IMG/VR virus record: IMGVR_UViG_3300010376_000084
Location: 1 to 36,643 of that record
Origin: a virus
Lineage: Duplodnaviria; Caudoviricetes
Length of the DNA: 36,643 nt
Reading direction: 5' to 3' (one strand)
The notes below the pieces were generated by a model. It was not told where the DNA came from. It did not search any database and saw only the letters and a program-made list of their open reading frames with translations. The translations under genes were made by a program, and so were the position numbers. This document shows positions 12,193-28,102 of the stretch, piece after piece (the stretch's first letter is position 1; each line of letters begins with the position of its first letter).

Positions 12193-12386
12193 TGGCTAAT
12201 AATCTCATCAATCATCTTATGAATAGCATCTAAATCTTCCATAAATTTACTATGCTGTTCAAAAGGAATAGGAATTGATGGTACAGCTAGTAGAGCTTTG
12301 AGAAAGTCGTTATGGGCTTTTAACATTACCACTACTAGTTTAATATCATCTGACATTTGTTTCCGCGTTTCTTTAGGCTCTGCCAC
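12189..12386 (-). CDS. Hypothetical protein
   Basis: 65 aa, overlaps both neighbours, AGGAG upstream. Confidence 0.55.
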   Translation of the reverse strand: MAEPKETRKQMSDDIKLVVVMLKAHNDFLKALLAVPSIPIPFEQHSKFMEDLDAIHKMIDEIISQ

Positions 12387-14061
12387 CTTGTGCTCCTCCT
12401 TGCAATTGTTCTAGTGGACTGCCTGATTGAGGCTTTTGACTAATTGAACGAACTGCTGGAGACAGGTTCTTAGCTCCCTGAGTAACTTGCATAGCCTCTT
12501 GGTTCTGTTTTTCCTGCTCCATCGCTTGCTGTTTTTGTTGACGAATTACATCCAACTGTTTAGCATCTCGGATAATATCTGAAGGAATACCAAGCACTGA
12601 AGCACGGTAACGAGCAAGCTCATCAAAATCAATCACATCGATTACATCAGGATGGAGTTTAGCGATTGGCTCTAAACCCTGAATAAATTGGTCAGTGGCA
12701 GTTAAATCAGAGCTTCGTTGTGCTCGTGCAAGTGGACCTTCATATTGGATACGAAGTCCGAGTGGTTTCGTTCTAAGCGCTTGAACCAACGCTCCAGGTA
12801 GCGGGTTAAATAACCCTGCTCGGTACATAATCTTGAAAGTACGGTCAATAAGCGGAGTTGCAAATTCAGTATCAATCCGTCCCAAAGTAGGACCAAGCAC
12901 CCGCTGCATAGTTTCATATCTAACATTAACCTCAGTTGCAGTCATTTGCGGTCCAGTTTGTAGTTGCAACTGGTCGATATAATACATACCATGTATTGAC
13001 TGCTTCAATTCCTCTTTCTTTAGATTGACTACTTCATATTTACCTGTAGTATCAATTGGGAACAATGATTCACGACCAGACTTTAACATGGTGATACCAC
13101 CAGGAATCATTCGAGCTGGACCAATTACTTCACCACTAACCACTCCTAACGGTGGGTCAACATTCTTTGCCAAATTCCTCAATTCCATCTCTACAATTTT
13201 ATTGAGTGTCCTAATATCCGGCAATGCAGTGTGACTTGGTCCCCGTCCGTAAGTTTCATCGGCATATTTTGTCCATCGTGGCACCATAAAAGGAAATTCA
13301 TAATAACCCTTGGTAGAAAGGATGGTGCGGGTTTTATTGAGTATGTATGTGGATTCCCATCGATAATCTTGGTTATTTCCACTTTGTTTAGGTACAACAG
13401 CATGAATTACTTCCCACAGTTCATCTGGCTTTGGACACTCTACCACTTCTTGTGGAATCGTTGACGGCCATTTTGCCTTAATTGCATGGGTGGACATTGG
13501 AATCGTCCTAAATACCGTGTCAACTCGGTTGTCTGGTCCTTCAGCAACAACGAATTTTTGAATTGAGACTGAGCTAAATCTAAGTCCACCCCACCAGCCT
13601 TTTTCTTTAGCTTCTTCTTCATATAAACATCCAGTACCAAAGCAACACATATCTATGTAAAGTTCATGACCTTCTGCATTAAAATTAGATTTATTAATTT
13701 CAATTCGCATTCGATTATTTACTGCATCAAGCCAAGTTCGCACTGCATAATCTTTTTGTAAATCTTCATCAATTATTTCAAGAGCAAACTACTTAGTAAA
13801 ACTAGGAGTGAGAGTCCCGTGAATAGCACTAGCCAGAAGCTCCATATCGTGTGGTGCAGTGGAATCAAATAAGCGCTGAGTACGCTTGTAACCAGGAATA
13901 CGCTGTACAGCAATAGAGTTCTTTCGTGGTAAGATATAATCGGCAAGCTCCTGCCACTCCATCCACCAAATTTGCTGTACTCCAAGTAATTGGGTATATT
14001 GATACAGCAAATCTTGTATGCGTTCTTCTTCTACTGCCATTCCTTCAGCACTCTTTGACAC
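12373..14061 (-). CDS. Portal / head-tail connector protein, interrupted by one in-frame TAG at 13789-13791
   Basis: ORFs 13789..14061 and 12373..13743 share a frame: ...TLTPSFTK*FALEIIDEDLQKDYAVRTWLD. Portal motifs WQELADYILP, FDSTA, YGRGP and MTATEV; 562 codons joined. Confidence 0.9.
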
Positions 14062-15742: not shown

Positions 15743-17262
15743 TGTGGTCGTGCTCCATCAATTACTGGAGGAATATTAGCCCCACTAGTCGGTGTATAAT
15801 CATAGGTGAATGCACCATTGCCAGTGACAATTTTATTCGTAATGTGATTATTAATCACCTGAGTTCCATTGCCACAGGCATTGGCATAGCAAAAGCCTTT
15901 AACAGTAACCATGCCATCTCCGGTAATATTGACCGCTTGAGCTAATCGTGGTCCACCATTTAATTCAATTCCATAAGCTTCAAAGTCTGTAGCATAATTT
16001 AAACTGATACCAATTCCCGTGCCAGGAGTTTGATTACTAGTCTCAAAATAGGTACCCAAATCAAGCACAGATTTACAAGGACCGGCAGCGGTCCCGTTGA
16101 CTTTAAGCCATACAGGTGTAGTCCCAGCAAAATCAACAATGGCACCACCAATGATTTGAAGAGATTGACTTCCACCTGATGAATTTTGATTGCATTCAAT
16201 ATCATAGCCAATCCCGTTCAGTCCGGTTAGGTGGTTGCCCAATATCCAAACATTATGAAATAATAAAGCATTCCACTGTTGATTGGTATCATCAACTAGG
16301 ATAGCGGTCTGGTTAGCTCCCCCTAGTGCAACACTAAGATTCTGAAAACTACCCTGTCCTTCGACTCCAGCTACCCATAGTACCGCTTTATTAACGGTCG
16401 CTCCACCAGCTCCAATATAGATACCTTGCACATCCATATTGGGTGTGCTAGTGTTGGTAATGCCCAAAGCTGAATTAGTAAAGCCTGACCATGACTCAAC
16501 CACAGCATCTAAGGTGCCCAACCTACCTGTAACTGAGCCACCATTTTGACTATTAGAGCCAATCACCGAACCTTTGTTAGCTACTACAATGCCTGCGGCT
16601 CCTTTACCAGTGCCAACGAACGAAACCTTGGCTCCAGGGTAGAGCATTAACTCTTGAGTTGCATTTGGTCCACCAACTCCGACAAACAGAGGAGTAGGAG
16701 AGGGATAGTTACCTGGGGTGGCAACAACAATACACGGCGTAGATGAAACCACGCCAAGTCTGATGTTAATCCAGCTACCTGTGCCATCGGCAGTGATTCC
16801 CAAGTAATTCGGGTTCCAGGCTGGATGAATGCCTGATGATGCAGTTCCAGCTGTTCTTCCAACTTCAATATTTCCATTGGTATCGGTTATCTGTGTGGTA
16901 CCAACACTAATCGACATCCCTGATGACCAGTTTTGGGCTGGACACTGCTTAAACGCTGCATGAAGCGGGTCAGTGGGGTTCGACTGGATAAACGGCTGAG
17001 CATAAATGAACTGTGGCAGGTTAGCCGAACCACCTCCGCTACCAGGTGGACCTGGTGGACCTGGTGGACCTGTACTCCCTTGAGGTCCAGGTGGTCCGGT
17101 GTTACCTTGTGGACCCTGTGGACCTACCGTTCCCTGTGGTCCCGTCATACCTGGTGGACCTTGAACTCCCTGTGGTCCCATCGGTCCCTGTTGAGCTAGC
17201 ACAGCTGTAGCTAGTATAAGTAATATGACAACCAGTAATAGGTATATCCGGCTAGATTTCAT
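15739..17262 (-). CDS. Collagen-repeat, beta-helix-like protein with N-terminal signal-peptide-like segment
   Basis: Start revised to ATG 17262 (GAGG RBS): [25 protein letters not shown], then about 16 Gly-X-Y triplets and a Gly/Asn/Thr-rich body. Confidence 0.75.
17046..17186 (-). repeat. 9-bp periodic collagen-coding repeat (GGTCCACCA-like)
   Basis: Encodes (GPP/GPQ)n. Confidence 0.8.
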
Positions 17263-18784
17263 CTGGCACCTCATCCTCCCTCACTACCCAGAGAGGTCTA
17301 GTAGTATATAGTTGACTGCCCGATTGGAATCTATCCAGCCGACCTTCAGTTAGTCCACGACCAATTTGGTCGATATATTGCGGAGTGACTCCTGGATACA
17401 TGAAATCATTGGCTGGTGAATGACTGGTATCCAGTGGATTGAAATCTCGCTGATATTCAGTAACCTGGAAGCGTTCATCAATTTCCGATTCCACCCCAAA
17501 AGCTAGGTATCTGAACGCATCCGCACCATGTGACCACTTATCGTGGACTGGATTGCGCTTGAAATCCAGTAATTTATTATTGAAATCCTTATGATAGTTG
17601 ATTAGGGCACGGATACCAAGGTCACATTTCACCTTGTCAAAATAGCACCGTGGCAGTATGGTCCTAGTATAATCAATGCCTTCAGCTACCGATAAACGTG
17701 GCGTAGTCTTAAAGTGTATCCCTAAATCTCGTGCTATCTCTCTTCTCGACCGTCCACTAGTAAACTCTCGGGTTTCAATATCATGTGGTGCATAATGATT
17801 ACTGTAGACATAGGGCTTGTCTTTGCAGATTTTAATATAGTGCTGCAAACCCTGACTGTTATTGATATAGTAATCAATCAGGAAGACTTCCCGCCCAACC
17901 TTTTGAGCAAACCATATGGCACACTGGTCGGCTATGCCTAAATCCCAGCCCGTGAATACTGCATACTTAGGGTCCCAGCTGACTTCGCGTATCCTGTTGG
18001 CTTGGTACAGTTCAGCTATTATTCGGCCATAATATGAACCTTCCCTGAAGCCGACAAAGCTACAGTAGTATTCCTGCTGCACCAAGTCCTCATCCATGCC
18101 GGATTTGCGCTCTTCATCCAGCATAGACTCCGATACGACGGGTTCAGGTGGAGTATTTGGTGCGAGTGCCTCTAGTTCCTCTTCACTGTCTCTTTTGGTA
18201 TCTTCGACCGTCTTGGTGCTTACGAACCACCCTTTAGCTCCGTGGGCTTTCTCCCATAGAGAGAATGCATGATTACGACCTCTAGGAGTAAAGATGAAAG
18301 CTGCCCAACCTTTATTTTCGGTGAGTATCGGTCGGATGAATTCCCAGGCTGAAGGAAATTGTAGGCTAAACTCTGAGTATACCACTCCGACTGGATTGGC
18401 TCCAACAATCCTGTCAACATGGTCTGAGCCTATCAAGCGGAAGATTGAGCCATTAACCAGCCCAATTTCCAACCTCTGGTCATTCTTGTACTCCACCAAC
18501 TGTTCAGGGAAGTGTTCGATAAATGGAAACCCTTCGTTGATACCTGAACCCATGCCCTCCCAGATGATTAATCGAGCCTGCTCGTAGGTTGGTAGTACAT
18601 ACCAATACATCCCGACCCTTTCCAGCATCCGGCAGATAGTGAAATTCAACCAGGTTTTATCTTTGCCACTTCTCCTATGCCAAACACTGATGAATCTCCT
18701 ATAGCCACGATTCCAGGCTTCAAATACTTCCCTTTGATAGCTTCGGGGAGTATATTCAAATGGAAGCTGTATAGTTATATCCAT
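17252..18784 (-). CDS. terL: Terminase large subunit
   Basis: Walker A-like [13 protein letters not shown] Walker B, FTPRG motif, QEYYCSF, nuclease WDLG and SHGADAFRY. Confidence 0.95.
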
Positions 18785-19594: not shown

Positions 19595-19665
19595 GATTAT
19601 AATCCTAGATTCTTCAGGCTACTCGCCTTCAGAATGGTTCGATTTATTCTATCGAATAATCTTCC

Positions 19666-19735
19666 ACTTGACAGACGACATACATAGCTTCGCCCTCAGT
19701 AGCATATTGACAGGGCGATACAAATGTGTCAATAT
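19666..19735. promoter_or_regulatory. Divergent control region with ACTTGACA-box and 9-bp inverted repeat
   Basis: ACTTGACAGACGACATAC at 19666; ATATTGACA-N14-TGTCAATAT at 19704-19735, between divergent terS and HNH genes. Confidence 0.45.
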
Positions 19736-19770
19736 AGGTAGGAAATACAATTCTATAGGATGCAAGAATC

Positions 19771-20157
19771 ATGCCGCATGGAATGTCTGATTATGATTAT
19801 GGTAGAATGCGATATGCTGTTAGACTGGCAGTTAAAGAAGGCAGGTTAATAAAGCCTGTCAAGTGTCAAGTATGTAACCAGGTTAGGGTTTTATCTGGTC
19901 ATCATACTTCATATAGACCAGAGAATTGGCTTAATGTGATTTGGGTTTGCCATAGCTGTCATCGGACTGTTCACTGGCAAGAGGAAACTGAGAAGTTTGA
20001 ATTAGATGAGTTCTCTCGGATATCCAGGTTAGCTGCTGAAATTGATAAGTTTAAAGCTAAACAGAGTACGACTAAGAAAAAAGAGATGAAACAGTCTAAG
20101 GTTCAAGCTGAGACGCAGGTGCTGGTTAGAAGGTTACTGAATAAAGAATTACTTTGA
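19771..20157 (+). CDS. HNH-type zinc-binding endonuclease-like protein
   Basis: CQVC...GHH.SY...LNVIWVCHSCHRTVH motif. Confidence 0.7.
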   Translation: MPHGMSDYDYGRMRYAVRLAVKEGRLIKPVKCQVCNQVRVLSGHHTSYRPENWLNVIWVCHSCHRTVHWQEETEKFELDEFSRISRLAAEIDKFKAKQSTTKKKEMKQSKVQAETQVLVRRLLNKELL

Positions 20158-20226
20158 TTCTGCTGGATGGGTGACTTTGGATTTTGGATGAGTGATGGGG
20201 GACGGATGGAAGTTATGTCTGAATTT

Positions 20227-20851
20227 TTGGCATGGAACTTGCATGTTTTTGGTGTACGGGCACGAATCCTGCAATAAGCATGCTACATGCCAACCCAAAA
20301 CGTTAACCCATATGGGTTAGCCGGCCGGCAAATGTCATGCCAAACTAAAATGCCGCATGGATACTACGTAATTACTGGCACGTGTCATGCTAGCTAGCAG
20401 TATCTATGCCATACTAGTTTTCATTTTGCAATTGGCACGATGCTTGATTTACAATTTGGCCTAGCTTGCATACAGCTAGCCGGCTAATTGCAAGCACCAT
20501 GCCAAGAGAAAATAAGCAGTTGGCACGATTCTTGCATAGGATGATGTCTGGCACGATTCTTGCTAATATAGCAATAAGTGTACCATCAAAGTGTACACCA
20601 AGGGCGCCTCGAAAAAGTGTAGTACTATGCAAGCGTGCCAAGTGTTCCTTATGTCGCTGCATGTCGCTGCATGTCGCGCGGTGTAACCACCTGTTACCAC
20701 TGCAAGGTTCATGCCCACCTTTAAGACGCATCTGGGCGTTATCACACATCGTGCCAACGAAAATCGCCCTTGTAAGTGTGGGAAGGTGCATAAATCGTGC
20801 CACCAAGATAAATCAATGAGTATAAGGCTTATTTTCGGCATGGATAATGCA
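20227..20851. repeat. Array of sigma-54 (RpoN) -24/-12 consensus sites
   Basis: 13 GG-N10-GC sites resembling YTGGCAYR-N4-TTGCW on both strands, e.g. TTGGCACGATTCTTGCA (20520) and CTGGCACGATTCTTGCT (20548); three more with GA at -12. Confidence 0.85.
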
Positions 20852-21142
20852 GTATCACAGGTAACGGGGGGAACATTGATAGCGTTTTTTTATAGGTCAC
20901 TTTTCCTACAGCCTGTTTACTACAGGCTTTGCGCCCTCGGCAGTATGTCATATGTCAAGTAGAAAACTTCTTTTTAGACTTCTTTATAGGCTTATCTAAC
21001 GCCTCTGGGAGGTTTAATAAGTCTAATTTACTCATTCGATAGTACCTGTCTAACCTAATTCGCCTCTTAGTACGCCTCTTACCACCACGCATATCAATGT
21101 GAAAATCTTCAGGCAGACCCTTTCTAAGTTTCATACTTGTTC

Positions 21143-21439
21143 CTACAGGCTAAGGTAATGTCGCCAAAGAATTTGAGGATTAGCATATACCCGATCATTA
21201 CTAGATTCAGCGATTTCCCTGTCCTTGGAGCCGTTGAAGAACCAAACTTTGCGATATCTTTCCTTGACCCAGGGATAATTAGAATCGAGCAGAAGTTCGA
21301 CATCTACTAGCCTGAATACGGCCAATAGGCCGTCTGCTGGGAGGATGCAAGGAACAGTAGCTCGTTCCTCAATCCACCAACCTTTCTTGATTTCTAGACT
21401 GGTTCTGAAATCATTGTTAAGCTTCATAACCTGATTCAC
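21143..21439 (-). CDS. Hypothetical protein
   Basis: 98 aa, co-oriented with the DGQHR operon, purine-rich RBS. Confidence 0.55.
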   Translation of the reverse strand: MNQVMKLNNDFRTSLEIKKGWWIEERATVPCILPADGLLAVFRLVDVELLLDSNYPWVKERYRKVWFFNGSKDREIAESSNDRVYANPQILWRHYLSL

Positions 21440-21465
21440 TCCTACCTTACAAACACAAAAAGTTA

Positions 21466-21505
21466 AACTCGACTAGCTAACCTGTGCCGGCTAACTAGTC
21501 GAGTT
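21466..21505 (-). terminator. Probable intrinsic terminator downstream of the DGQHR gene
   Basis: mRNA strand: AACTCGACTAG-TTAGCC / GGTTAG-CTAGTCGAGTT stem followed by TAACTTTTTG. Confidence 0.65.
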
Positions 21506-21555: not shown

Positions 21556-23289
21556 TCAGTCATCCGCCATCATATCATCCTCACCACCTACTGAATCTCC
21601 ACGGAGACGCTTAGCTTCACGCAACAGCAAAGTTCCCATCCACCGCACCGTAGTGATTTTATTCTCTACTTTACCAGCACTATTCACTACTGGAGCAGGC
21701 TTGCCATCTACCGTACTATCAGTCCACAACTCATCGTCAACACTCCAGCCTTCACTTTGACTCATTGACACCATTAACCGTTCGACCGTCGCAACTATAC
21801 CTGAATAGTCCTGCTCATCTTTCTTCTTACGGTCAACCTCAGCAACTAAAGCGTCAATCATCCTACCCATACCTTTATAAAACACTGAATTATAGCAGAC
21901 ATACCGGCCAGCTACTTCACTGTACTTACTGCCAGCTATCAACTCTCTGATTCTAGGTAGGTTATAGATTACGGTACTAACCAACTGACCGACTTCTTCC
22001 AGTTCTAGCTTACGTTCACTGAAAGCATTGACTAGGCTAGTCATACCTTTCTCTGGTTGAATCATACTAGCTAGGTTAGTCAAAGTAACTGGTTTACTCT
22101 CGGTCTTCTTAGGAGTGATACCCTCTAAGTTAACCAGAGTCTCTAGGCCAGTATGACCGTCACCAAATTGTGAGGTGGTCAGTCCAGCACAGTACTTGGC
22201 TAACACTGTAGCTTTATCAACATGGTCATACAGTGTCGCTATCGCTTTGCTTACTTTCCTAGGCGTCTTGTTGATATCCGAAAACAGTTGCTGTCTAGTC
22301 TCTAAATCGTCTGGCGATATCGCTACGATAACTACCGGCATACTCTCAGCTCGCAGGCTAGCCTCTTTGTTATCGTGTTCAACAATCTGTCGTTCTACTA
22401 ACCGGATATCACGGTTACGGTCTTCTTCAGTCTCACCATCAGCTTTAAAAATTGGCGTAGACTGTAGTCGATTCATTTCAGCGTTAAGAGCGATACGCTG
22501 AACATTAAGCATTTCCTCCAGTGCTCGTTTAATTCCTGCCAGTCTATGCTGTCCATCAATCGCCAGTATTGAGCTAGCACTAAGCTCAACCTGGTGGCTA
22601 CCATTAGCACTTGCCTTAGCTTTCTCTACTAGGCTGTCGTGCAGTTCGACTCTACTCGGCACACAGATTAATGGTGGGAAGTAGTGTAGTGGACTATCTA
22701 CCAGGTATCGAGCGATATCTCGCACCCTATCACTGTCTAGCTGCCGTTGGAAACGCTCAAGGAATGATTTCTCTTTAAGCTGCTTTTCGGACAGTGGCTT
22801 ACCGTCTTCAGTGGAATATAAGCTTCTCTCAAAGCCGGCATAGCCAATCAGGTCAACCAAATTCATATTGACCACAAAGCTATCAGTCTGTCCCATGTGA
22901 GAGTGAACCATAGTAAACTGCCTAGGTTCAACCAGCTTACTACCAGTCGAACCATTACCAGCACTCTTAGTACCGTCCGCTTTACTAACCGGCTTACTCT
23001 CGTCAGCCTTGGCTTGTTCAGCCTGCTTCATAGCCTCTATCACTTGAGCGGATGACTGAGCATTCTTTAGACGGTCCATCATCGCACTAGCCCGCGTTTC
23101 GGTAGTTTCCGGCATATTAGTCTCCTGTTTTCCTGTTGTCTCTGCTATACCATTACCTATCACTGGCAATGTTGCACTCTGCTGTTTATCAGCTAGCAGC
23201 TTAGCCTCTTTAGCCTCCAAGGCTGCTTTAGCATCGATTTTAGCCTGTATGATTTCCTTCACTGAAGGATAAATCCTAGTATCTGGCAT
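21556..23289 (-). CDS. DGQHR-domain / DndB-like protein (ParB/Srx superfamily)
   Basis: FQRQLD..RV..IARYL, FPPL, IDGQHR, RQQLFSDIN and LYDH motifs; alternative start at 23115 with AGGAG RBS. Confidence 0.85.
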   Translation of the reverse strand: MPDTRIYPSVKEIIQAKIDAKAALEAKEAKLLADKQQSATLPVIGNGIAETTGKQETNMPETTETRASAMMDRLKNAQSSAQVIEAMKQAEQAKADESKPVSKADGTKSAGNGSTGSKLVEPRQFTMVHSHMGQTDSFVVNMNLVDLIGYAGFERSLYSTEDGKPLSEKQLKEKSFLERFQRQLDSDRVRDIARYLVDSPLHYFPPLICVPSRVELHDSLVEKAKASANGSHQVELSASSILAIDGQHRLAGIKRALEEMLNVQRIALNAEMNRLQSTPIFKADGETEEDRNRDIRLVERQIVEHDNKEASLRAESMPVVIVAISPDDLETRQQLFSDINKTPRKVSKAIATLYDHVDKATVLAKYCAGLTTSQFGDGHTGLETLVNLEGITPKKTESKPVTLTNLASMIQPEKGMTSLVNAFSERKLELEEVGQLVSTVIYNLPRIRELIAGSKYSEVAGRYVCYNSVFYKGMGRMIDALVAEVDRKKKDEQDYSGIVATVERLMVSMSQSEGWSVDDELWTDSTVDGKPAPVVNSAGKVENKITTVRWMGTLLLREAKRLRGDSVGGEDDMMADD

Positions 23290-23964: not shown

Positions 23965-23981
23965 TTGGCACGATTCTTGCA
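23965..23981 (+). promoter_or_regulatory. Sigma-54 consensus site
   Basis: TTGGCACGATTCTTGCA; 20 bp identical to 20520-20539. Confidence 0.7.
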
Positions 23982-24334
23982 TAGACTACACAAGTTCGCG
24001 CGCTGTTACAGAGTTAATCTATAAGGTTCTACCAATCCTATTTGTATCCTCCAGTGGATTCATCCGTGTTCGCATGTTCAACGTTAGGCCATGCAGAGCC
24101 TAGTTAGCTGTTACCGATAGCGTATCCTACCGGCTGATTGTCCATTACTATGTATACGGCTTTGTTGCGGTAATGCGCTAGTGCTTCTACTATGCGGCTT
24201 TCCATAAGGTATGGTCAGTAAGTATCCACACCGTACTCTTGACGCATTTCAGGCACGTCCAACAAAGCTAGGATAAGGTTAATCGATAGGCGCGGTATCT
24301 CCTGTTTCGTTGTTTGCAATCAGACACTATGTAT

Positions 24335-24351
24335 TGCATACCGCGTACCAT
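24335..24351 (-). promoter_or_regulatory. Sigma-54-like site facing the leftward operon
   Basis: ATGGTACGCGGTATGCA (GG-N10-GC); similar ATGGTACGGAATATGCA at 24565-24581 (-). Confidence 0.5.
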
Positions 24352-24691
24352 AGCCTATTGGGCGTTAGGTTGAGCTATTGGACGCTATAACTCCAGCCTG
24401 GTCGCGCATTATGCGAAATGTGTCTTATAAGTTGCGAATACATCTGATAGACTAGCCTAGCATCTATAAAATGCGAATGCGTCTATTAGCTCACCATAGC
24501 ACTATATAGCGAATTATTCGCAATCAAAGAACGTGCCAGTTCTCATTATGAGAATGGACGGCAATGCATATTCCGTACCATTGCAATTTGCAATCCTACC
24601 AAACGCTTGCTTGCTAACCGCTACCGTCATTCGGTCAGTGGCTAAACGTCTATTAGCGTCTTATAGATCATTTCACCGTTTGCTCACCGTC

Positions 24692-24785
24692 TGTTCGCTT
24701 TTCATTCGCTTTTGGTCGGTTTTGATTTGAAAAAGGTGCCAGTGTTCGCTTTAGTTTCGCTTTTGGTCAGAGTTGGTTTGAAAAA
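24692..24785. repeat. Imperfect 43-bp direct repeat (2 copies)
   Basis: TGTTCGCTTT..TTCGCTTTTGGTC..TTG.TTTGAAAAA at 24692-24734 and 24743-24785. Confidence 0.75.
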
Positions 24786-24833: not shown

Positions 24834-24863
24834 TTGACAACATTTTTACAATTATGTTAAAAT
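24834..24863 (+). promoter_or_regulatory. Sigma-70-type promoter for the rightward replication operon
   Basis: TTGACA (24834), 18-bp spacer ending TGn, then TAAAAT (24858). Confidence 0.6.
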
Positions 24864-24988
24864 GCTCACGGCATTGTTTACTTGACATATGACAGGGCGC
24901 AGCTTTCGCAAAATGCGAAAACAAAAACAGATTTCAAATGTATGATTTAGGAGATTCATTTTAGTCTAAAACTGGGAGATATTGAAAT

Positions 24989-27540: not shown

Positions 27541-27705
27541 ATGACTAGAGATGACTTAATTTTAGGTGTTGAAACTTATCGAGATATGTGGATAAAGCAA
27601 CTCATAGAAAATAATGAGTTAGGATTTGATGACCCATATGTCGATAATATTAATAGTACACTGAATAACCTTGTTAAATTTATTGAGGAGCATTATGATG
27701 ACTAG
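27541..27705 (+). CDS. Hypothetical protein (54 aa)
   Basis: Own translation MTRDDLILGVETYRDMW...; AGGAG RBS. Confidence 0.6.
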   Translation: MTRDDLILGVETYRDMWIKQLIENNELGFDDPYVDNINSTLNNLVKFIEEHYDD

Positions 27706-28102
27706 AGATGAAGCATTGACAGATTGGTATGATTGTCAGCGTCAGATTGAACAGTTGATGGAGAAGGCAATTAATTTAAAGAAGATTATATTCAGTGAAG
27801 TAGGAGTACCTCAGCGAGCCATACCTAAATCGGACCGTATGCAGGGTAATGTTAGGTCTAATTCTGCCGGTAAAGGTAAGACTCAACAAATTGTGGTTAG
27901 AGTAATGTCTGAACACGGTGGTAAGATGCGAGTTAAAGAGATAGCCACACTAGCTGAGATTACTACCAATTGTGTTTATTCAGCCGTGAGTAAGTTAGTT
28001 GAATTAGGAGTAGTCCATAAAGAAAAAGATAAAGAAAATATAGGTCAAACAATATATTCATTAGCTGTTTATCGTGATAGAAGTGAATTAAATCACCTTT
28101 AA
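27695..28102 (+). CDS. Winged helix-turn-helix DNA-binding protein
   Basis: MRVKEIATLAEITTNCVYSAVSKLVELGVV wHTH; start revised to ATG 27695 (GAGGAG RBS). Confidence 0.7.
   Translation: MMTRDEALTDWYDCQRQIEQLMEKAINLKKIIFSEVGVPQRAIPKSDRMQGNVRSNSAGKGKTQQIVVRVMSEHGGKMRVKEIATLAEITTNCVYSAVSKLVELGVVHKEKDKENIGQTIYSLAVYRDRSELNHL

Follow-up and report, generated by a model that had tools for sequence, protein, structure and literature searches.

The sigma-54 sites of bacteria are the closest described counterparts of the locus analysed here. The sites mapped by ChIP-seq in E. coli (PMC4591121) and those reported from Salmonella (PMC3844500) share with it, as far as the accessible parts of these sources go, the motif TGGCACR-N4-TTGCW, the fixed spacing and a near-consensus quality. 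However, bacterial sites stand singly or widely spaced, whereas the phage array packs 13 sites of both orientations into 625 bp, some of them as abutting head-to-head pairs, and is accompanied by no activator gene. According to the available text of PMC3844500, sigma-54 forms stable closed complexes that stay silent unless a bEBP acts, and some bEBPs lack a DNA-binding domain. In E. coli, most sigma-54 sites are described as inactive, RNAP-sigma54 bound within genes gave no roadblock repression, and the regulon includes pspA, pspG and rtcB (PMC4591121, in the sections available); the accessible part of PMC3861889 states that E. coli sigma-54 has no known anti-sigma factor. Because its promoter complexes are stable and silent, sigma-54 is the one sigma factor that a DNA array can hold without producing transcripts.

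Decoys or inhibitors of a host sigma factor or holoenzyme are known in other forms, 6S RNA and T4 AsiA being examples. Xp10 P7 (the available part of PMC5053324) likewise removes or blocks a host sigma factor or holoenzyme, as the array would. These agents are RNA or protein, whereas the array is genomic double-stranded DNA, the dose of which scales with copy number. The sigma54-like promoter of phage YuA (Ceyssens 2008b, as cited in the accessible text of PMC10914365) is also a phage element said to engage host sigma-54, but it is a single active promoter, and the YuA genome contains neither an exact consensus site nor a cluster. A further parallel is the first-step-transfer region of T5 with its injection-stop signal, where genes likewise run toward the presumed left end and protein-binding repeats lie nearby, and the T5-like phage VCPH carries sites in its first-step-transfer region. 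Unlike in T5, however, the 577-aa gene near our array is not A1, and T5 itself has no site cluster. Our literature search, made mostly among open-access papers, returned no description of phage sigma-54 site arrays, a class to which we assign a putative function below.

The window, that is, the whole stretch of 36,643 nucleotides that was analysed, stems from soil metagenomes and is the genome of a podovirus, with T7-like portal, tail and internal proteins, capsid and terminase large subunit (TerL) on the minus strand, and primase, helicases and a family A polymerase on the plus strand. The record is linear, lacks end repeats and is estimated to be 99% complete; contigs cross the array region at flat depth, and assembled contigs cannot reveal genome ends. 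Relatives by capsid and terminase infect proteobacteria, at identities of at most 43%. The sequence-only reading had seen neither a bEBP nor a phage RNA polymerase, and our searches agree: the bEBP domain PF00158 is absent from the genome, and no RNA polymerase was matched among the 51 proteins scanned. The features follow each other in the order TerL, probable terminase small subunit (TerS), HNH gene, array, a gap with a hairpin, and a leftward DGQHR operon, beyond which lie a second group of sites, a sigma-70-like promoter and the early genes (Table 1). The array had been described as having no adjacent genes, which is wrong, as 70 bp separate the array from the end of the HNH gene and 630 bp from the start of probable TerS, and the terminase operon lies downstream of it. 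The HNH gene is likely to be a recent insertion. For probable TerS, one atlas look-alike at 0.94 is named TerS, and a PHROG search gave no match. The 577-aa protein was considered as a homologue of T5 A1, which was ruled out, as it has no similarity to the A1 of VCPH and is a DndB/DGQHR protein. The portal gene (phrog_332; 12373-14061, minus strand) is split into ORFs of 90 aa and 456 aa, across which the DNA similarity to the related contig G001 is continuous, the split being a frameshift, an assembly error or a split gene.

Table 1. Coordinates of the sigma-54-type sites and of neighbouring features in the window.
Feature	Position	Strand	Remark
Terminase large subunit	17252..18784	-	
Probable terminase small subunit, 157 aa	19121..19594	-	Assigned from position and conservation
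Outlying site aimed at probable TerS	19761..19777	-	HNH gene between site and array
HNH endonuclease gene	19771..20157	+	Missing from both relatives
Main array, 13 GG-N10-GC sigma-54-type sites	20227..20851	6 plus, 7 minus	
Head-to-head pair, 5 bp between the two GC elements	20257..20293		Recurs in L259 and L240
Head-to-head pair, 6-bp core gap	20375..20412		
GA variants inside the array	20432, 20741	+, -	
Head-to-head pair, 7-bp core gap	20548..20586		20548 is a perfect site
17-bp terminator-like hairpin after the DGQHR gene	21466..21505	-	Splits the DGQHR operon from the array side
DndB/DGQHR-domain protein, 577 aa	21556..23289	-	29% identity in G001
Second, looser site group behind the early promoter	23965..24581		23965 perfect, identical in G001
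Strong sigma-70-like promoter, TTGACA-18-TAAAAT, extended TG	24834..24863	+	Precedes early/replication genes

All 13 sites listed by the sequence-only reading are present at the coordinates and on the strands it gave, each with the exact GG-N10-GC spacing and with at least 10 of the 13 positions of the wider consensus YTGGCACR-N4-TTGCW matched (range 10-13). That consensus was taken from the same reading and from recall, and was checked by eye against Table 1 of PMC4591121, where the E. coli sigma-54 ChIP-seq motifs, again compared by eye, resemble the phage sites. The enrichment over shuffled controls is clear: region 20200-20870 holds 13 sites against a mean of 0.51 and a maximum of 4 in 1000 dinucleotide shuffles, and 11 sites against a mean of 0.12 when at least 11 matches are demanded. 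Sites scoring at least 11 number 11 in the 670 bp of the array region and 3 in the remaining 36 kb. The spacing is strict, GGCAY-Nx-TGC occurring 12 times in the array region with x=6 and zero times with x=4, 5 or 7-12. Two of the three variants with GA at -12 that had been proposed hold (Table 1), while the third, at 20585, is a weak minus-strand GG-N10-GA match (9/13, read by eye); near 20451 and 20627 the sequence reads as two seemingly decayed copies with shortened spacers. The element extends past the array, with further sites at 19761(-), 23965(+, perfect), 24335(-), 24523(-, a GA variant) and 24565(-). The orientation toward a gene that is expected of a sigma-54-dependent promoter fits the outlying 19761 site only; within the array the orientations are mixed, and no gene start lies within ~630 bp on the TerS side.

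ORFs of 83-130 aa run across the array. Because Pfam gave no match for them and tblastn found no counterpart in two relatives, the array is taken to be non-coding, as originally supposed, and a coding repeat as its origin was ruled out for the same reasons. The array has no Rfam match at E up to 1, and its single-stranded fold has a z of -2.3 (20 shuffles), a value expected from motifs on opposite strands.

Among close relatives, L239 is a 99.9% twin of the phage and not independent, and syntenic arrays, which the initial note had hoped to see in related phages, are found in two others: L259 (TerS 76%) has 7 and L240/G001 (TerL 76%, TerS 42%) has 10 mixed-orientation sites upstream of TerS. 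When the arrays of these relatives were compared with the window by blastn, 48 bp of the L259 array aligned and nothing of the G001 array, and aligning two arrays with MAFFT was not informative either. Judged by these comparisons, the array is kept by number and position and not by sequence, which favours the earlier view of selection on the motif over simple duplication. The phage, L259 and L240/G001 have one head-to-head pair in common, which has a 5-bp core gap. The last array site in each of the two relatives is aimed at TerS, and in both an 11-of-12 sigma-70-like promoter separates array and TerS, the window's own candidates for such a promoter being weak. Their contigs stop 30-280 bp past the outermost site. 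As both contigs break at short tandem repeats, the evidence at most suggests a genome end near 20900-21450. Farther out, no array was found in 13 more distant IMG/VR terminase relatives (some loci offering <1 kb of upstream DNA), and none of the 12 GenBank relatives has three or more clustered sites; one of them, MW202742, has two sites 0.5-0.7 kb before TerL. It should be noted that a stretch reading TCGCGC..TGT.ACAGA is also kept between 23965-24015 of the window and 2345-2395 of G001, ~15-30 bp downstream of the identical perfect site; it may be a minus-strand promoter, the start of which would overlap the sigma-54 site.

Similar pairs of sites are common in viral genomes. Tandem TGGCAY-N5-TTGC pairs occur in ~1,400 IMG/VR stretches (estimated from 6/64 parts), against 114 stretches for control pairs with the spacer lengthened by one (N6). 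The control hits are coding repeats, because 109/123 of their periods are multiples of 3. Convergent pairs were found in ~850 and divergent pairs in ~550 viral stretches, and convergent pairs in ~410 stretches of 596 Gb of prokaryotic genomes; at least three sites surround 74/124 viral pair matches and 6/135 bacterial ones. The assignment to sigma-54 made by the earlier note gains from two positions that were not part of the search pattern, R-20 (0.93 in viral matches, n=707; 0.57 in bacterial, n=196; 0.33 in the +1-spacer control, n=116) and W-11 (0.85, 0.53 and 0.62 in the same sets), while Y-27 separates the sets weakly (0.74, 0.69 and 0.61). The array motif is of sigma-54 type, under selection and widespread.

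From 160 long loci, the 49 with at least 4 sites and 4.5 kb were reduced to 31 non-redundant ones. Counting only ORFs of at least 130 aa, a terminase lies within 3 kb in 14/31 and a Gp88-type gene in 6/31; TerL is within 3 kb in 12/31 loci and points away from the array in 11 of these 12. DndB-like genes were matched in 4/35 array-bearing records, including the twin and a close relative, and in 0/22 others; with only 4 records, DGQHR was dropped as a general partner of arrays. DndB/DGQHR genes are seen in leftward early operons beside sigma-54 sites in the window (21556-23289, minus strand), in G001 (558-1964) and in phage SYP (OQ183418.1, 7671-9125). An array on IMG/VR contig L094 (215-1000) has 25 sites in 800 bp grouped in strand blocks, and its blastn search against cultured phages gave chance coding matches only; the same search with the VCPH region returned mostly T5-like relatives. 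In Leptospira contigs (L512-L581), a many-copy repeat holds two TGGCAY-N5-TTGC sites head to head, at the 4-bp gap that is commonest in viruses; from its sequence, it could be either a sigma-54 trap or a REP-like hairpin.

The geometry of the convergent pairs is constrained. In 111/142 unique viral pairs, 3-7 bp separate TTGC from GCAA, and in none do 0-2 bp, whereas the gaps of 110 bacterial convergent pairs are spread out, save for the Leptospira repeat at gap 4. When 96 viral loci were clustered, gap 4 was found in 31/61 groups, and a CAC site is partnered with a CAT site in 41/61 (30 expected, p=0.004). The spacers of paired sites have a complementarity of 0.28-0.30, against 0.33 +/- 0.03 for shuffled partners; this lack of resemblance beyond the shuffled level means that the pairs are neither hairpins nor inverted duplications of a simple kind, and selection for a hairpin or cruciform was ruled out. 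Almost without exception, tandem cores start 24 bp or more from each other, and divergent cores are separated by 5 bp or more. Sigma-54 itself contacts ~-30 to -10, a smaller footprint than that of the holoenzyme. This packing of cores would suit the footprint of sigma-54's own contacts better than that of the whole holoenzyme. Early melting at -12/-11 is reported to stabilise the sigma-54 closed complex (PMC3844500, in the part available), and in a gap-4 pair the -12/-11 positions of the two sites adjoin, which suggests that such a pair might share a melted bubble. However, paired sites are not richer in AT at -11/-10 than unpaired ones, and sequence alone therefore lends no support to a special bubble. 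Coding strands diverge from the pair in 16/33 loci with both sides scored.

With respect to other promoters, 168 sigma-70-like promoters have a sigma-54 site within 300 bp in 210 non-redundant loci. Arrays lie behind these outward-firing promoters: 139/168 have a site behind (62 in the same and 77 in the opposite orientation), 42 have one ahead and 17 an overlapping one, and the nearest sites behind, whatever their orientation, concentrate 30-70 bp from the -35 element. This placement follows partly from the layout of any divergent intergenic region. Direct occlusion of sigma-70 promoters was dropped as an explanation, given the overlap in only 17/168. Neither the sigma-54 DNA-binding domain (PF04552) nor the bEBP domain (PF00158) was matched in any of the 35 array-bearing records, 9 of which are at least 90% complete; the search controls were positive.

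Cultured carriers infect Vibrio and Pseudomonas, both of which possess rpoN, and several of them have only 2-8 clustered sites. In vB_PpS_SYP, the first 12 kb holds 16/21 matches, and one match lies inside the 351-bp terminal repeat; in VCPH, 8/14 matches, including all 6 exact ones, are located between or near pre-early genes. Of five Pseudomonas phages with published TSS maps, PAK_P3 (NC_022970, L664) alone has exact sites: at 50798-50960, two perfect divergent sites lie 148 bp apart in a gene-free gap, behind the sigma-70 promoter P035, the first of the early promoter cluster. The TSS table in the supplement of PMC10914365, which covers one medium and is threshold-limited, calls none from 48439 to 51049, and Table S1 of PMC4309531 puts the terminal repeat at 62771-63516, ~12 kb from the pair. 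A PAK_P3 transcript 3' end at 50787, beside a site, was considered as the mark of a roadblock and dropped, as other reads reach 50872 and 50897.

Taken together, we regard it as probable that the array is a docking platform for host sigma-54 that does not fire. How such a platform would serve the phage is a more tentative matter, and the view that we prefer, a decoy that titrates host sigma-54 once the phage genome has been amplified, seems to us quite possible without being probable. Host sigma-54 would dock on the array sites; without an enhancer or bEBP the docked complexes would remain closed, and the untranscribed position would spare them eviction by elongating polymerase. With ~18 sites per genome and tens to hundreds of genome copies, the phage sites would outnumber those on the chromosome of an E. 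coli-like host, roughly 135, and would damp the sigma-54 regulon. The head-to-head pairs would juxtapose two -12/-11 early-melt positions across 3-7 AT-rich bases, an arrangement that would be more fitting for two sigma-54 molecules free of core, or for alternate occupancy, than for two simultaneously bound holoenzymes. The decoy, one of the options raised by the sequence-only reading, accounts for the number of sites, their turnover and mixed orientation, and the untranscribed place they occupy. It accounts poorly for the strictness of the head-to-head gap, for phages that carry few sites and for the gain to the phage. A plain sink needs neither a sharp gap nor a bias toward the terminase/early junction, 2-8 clustered sites are few for titration, and arrays are patchy among relatives, all of which count against it; the benefit of a decoy is also doubtful, as pspA, pspG and rtcB in the E. 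coli regulon could be of help to a phage. A bolder form, which we put forward as a rather doubtful possibility, holds that head-to-head -24/-12 pairs would be a widespread, undescribed phage cis-element, a shared AT-rich bubble of which traps sigma-54 cooperatively, giving a DNA-encoded anti-sigma scaled by copy number and perhaps a boundary at the phage end.

Docked sigma-54 might instead act locally, in cis, as a boundary or counter-silencer behind strong sigma-70 promoters, as a local polymerase reservoir, or as a protective or ratcheting coat on terminal and first-injected DNA. Such a role needs few sites, and it would fit the clustering 30-70 bp behind -35 elements, the sites in the first 12 kb and terminal repeat of vB_PpS_SYP, those among the pre-early genes of VCPH, and the contigs of two relatives that stop shortly past the outermost site. 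We nevertheless think it somewhat unlikely: the PAK_P3 pair is far from the terminal repeat (PMC4309531, Table S1), T5 has no cluster, tandem repeats like those at both contig breaks also break assemblies, and E. coli showed no roadblock effect (PMC4591121, in the part available). The last point, together with sites that lie behind rather than ahead of sigma-70-like promoters, also weakens the roadblock between converging units that the sequence-only reading had offered. The coat on a genome end, another of its options, is a plausible candidate for this phage. A different view is that the sites are real sigma-54 promoters, the head-to-head pairs being bidirectional promoter modules where early and late genes diverge; they would be activated either by a host bEBP working from solution or by a phage activator that escaped recognition. 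The 19761 site does aim at TerS from 167 bp upstream, as do the last sites of the relatives, coding strands diverge from about half of the pairs scored (16/33), a DNA-binding domain is dispensable in some bEBPs (PMC3844500, in part), and P015 of YuA is annotated as sigma54-like (PMC10914365, in part). However, PF00158 was matched in none of the 35 records, a good sigma-70 promoter already stands between array and TerS in both relatives, the nearest site points toward TerL in 5 and away in 6 of the 11 loci with TerL pointing away, the perfect sites of PAK_P3 have no TSS called in the table of PMC10914365, and P015 as printed there is not close to the consensus. We consider such promoters unlikely, in line with the earlier judgement, based in part on mixed orientation, that 13 working promoters are not to be expected.

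The place of the array beside terminase genes raises the further option of a packaging platform. Paused T7 polymerase and T4 gp55 mark or load terminase, and a stalled sigma-54 complex near the concatemer junction might do the same. The 11/12 loci in which TerL is transcribed away from an array within 3 kb, the place upstream of TerS that is kept in three relatives, and the two sites before TerL in MW202742 would fit this, but 17/31 loci have no terminase in the stretch examined (ORFs of at least 130 aa), the sites of SYP, VCPH and PAK_P3 are in early regions, and close terminase relatives package without an array, which makes a packaging role improbable. We judge equally improbable that the motif is read by something other than sigma-54, be it a phage protein, such as the terminase small subunit, the winged-helix ORF product of 27671-28102 or the DGQHR protein, or a DNA structure. 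The dyad geometry would fit a dimeric protein, and DndB-like genes were confined to array-bearing records (4/35, two being the twin and the close relative, against 0/22); nonetheless, the same 17-mer, including its unselected positions, is found in unrelated phages of 30-350 kb, and the DndB match is missing in 31/35 records, many of which are fragments. For a structure, paired spacers being no more complementary than shuffled partners (0.30 vs 0.33 +/- 0.03) means that there is no hairpin selection, and Rfam gave no match.

If the decoy that we prefer is real, hundreds of unrelated phages would manipulate a host sigma factor by DNA alone. It comes with a geometric prediction, a head-to-head gap of 3-7 bp with a peak at 4 and mostly CAC partnered with CAT, and with cultured systems of known host in PAK_P3, vB_PpS_SYP and VCPH. 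Arrays could also mark rpoN-positive hosts and the early/late junction in the genomes of uncultured phages.

Other repeated motifs in the window are of a different kind. The motif TTGACA-N3-GACA is present three times, at 19665(+), 20943-20966(-) and 24874-24894(+), two copies reading ACTTGACATATGACA and with no matching -10 box; these copies may serve as operator of a phage regulator, for instance the winged-helix ORF at 27671-28102. Just behind the early promoter, 24692-24785 holds two 43-bp direct repeats, 84% alike and ending in TTGAAAAA, and TTGAAAAA is found again at the same place in G001. Finally, an operator-like inverted repeat, ATATTGACA...TGTCAATAT, is located at 19702-19734, upstream of probable TerS.
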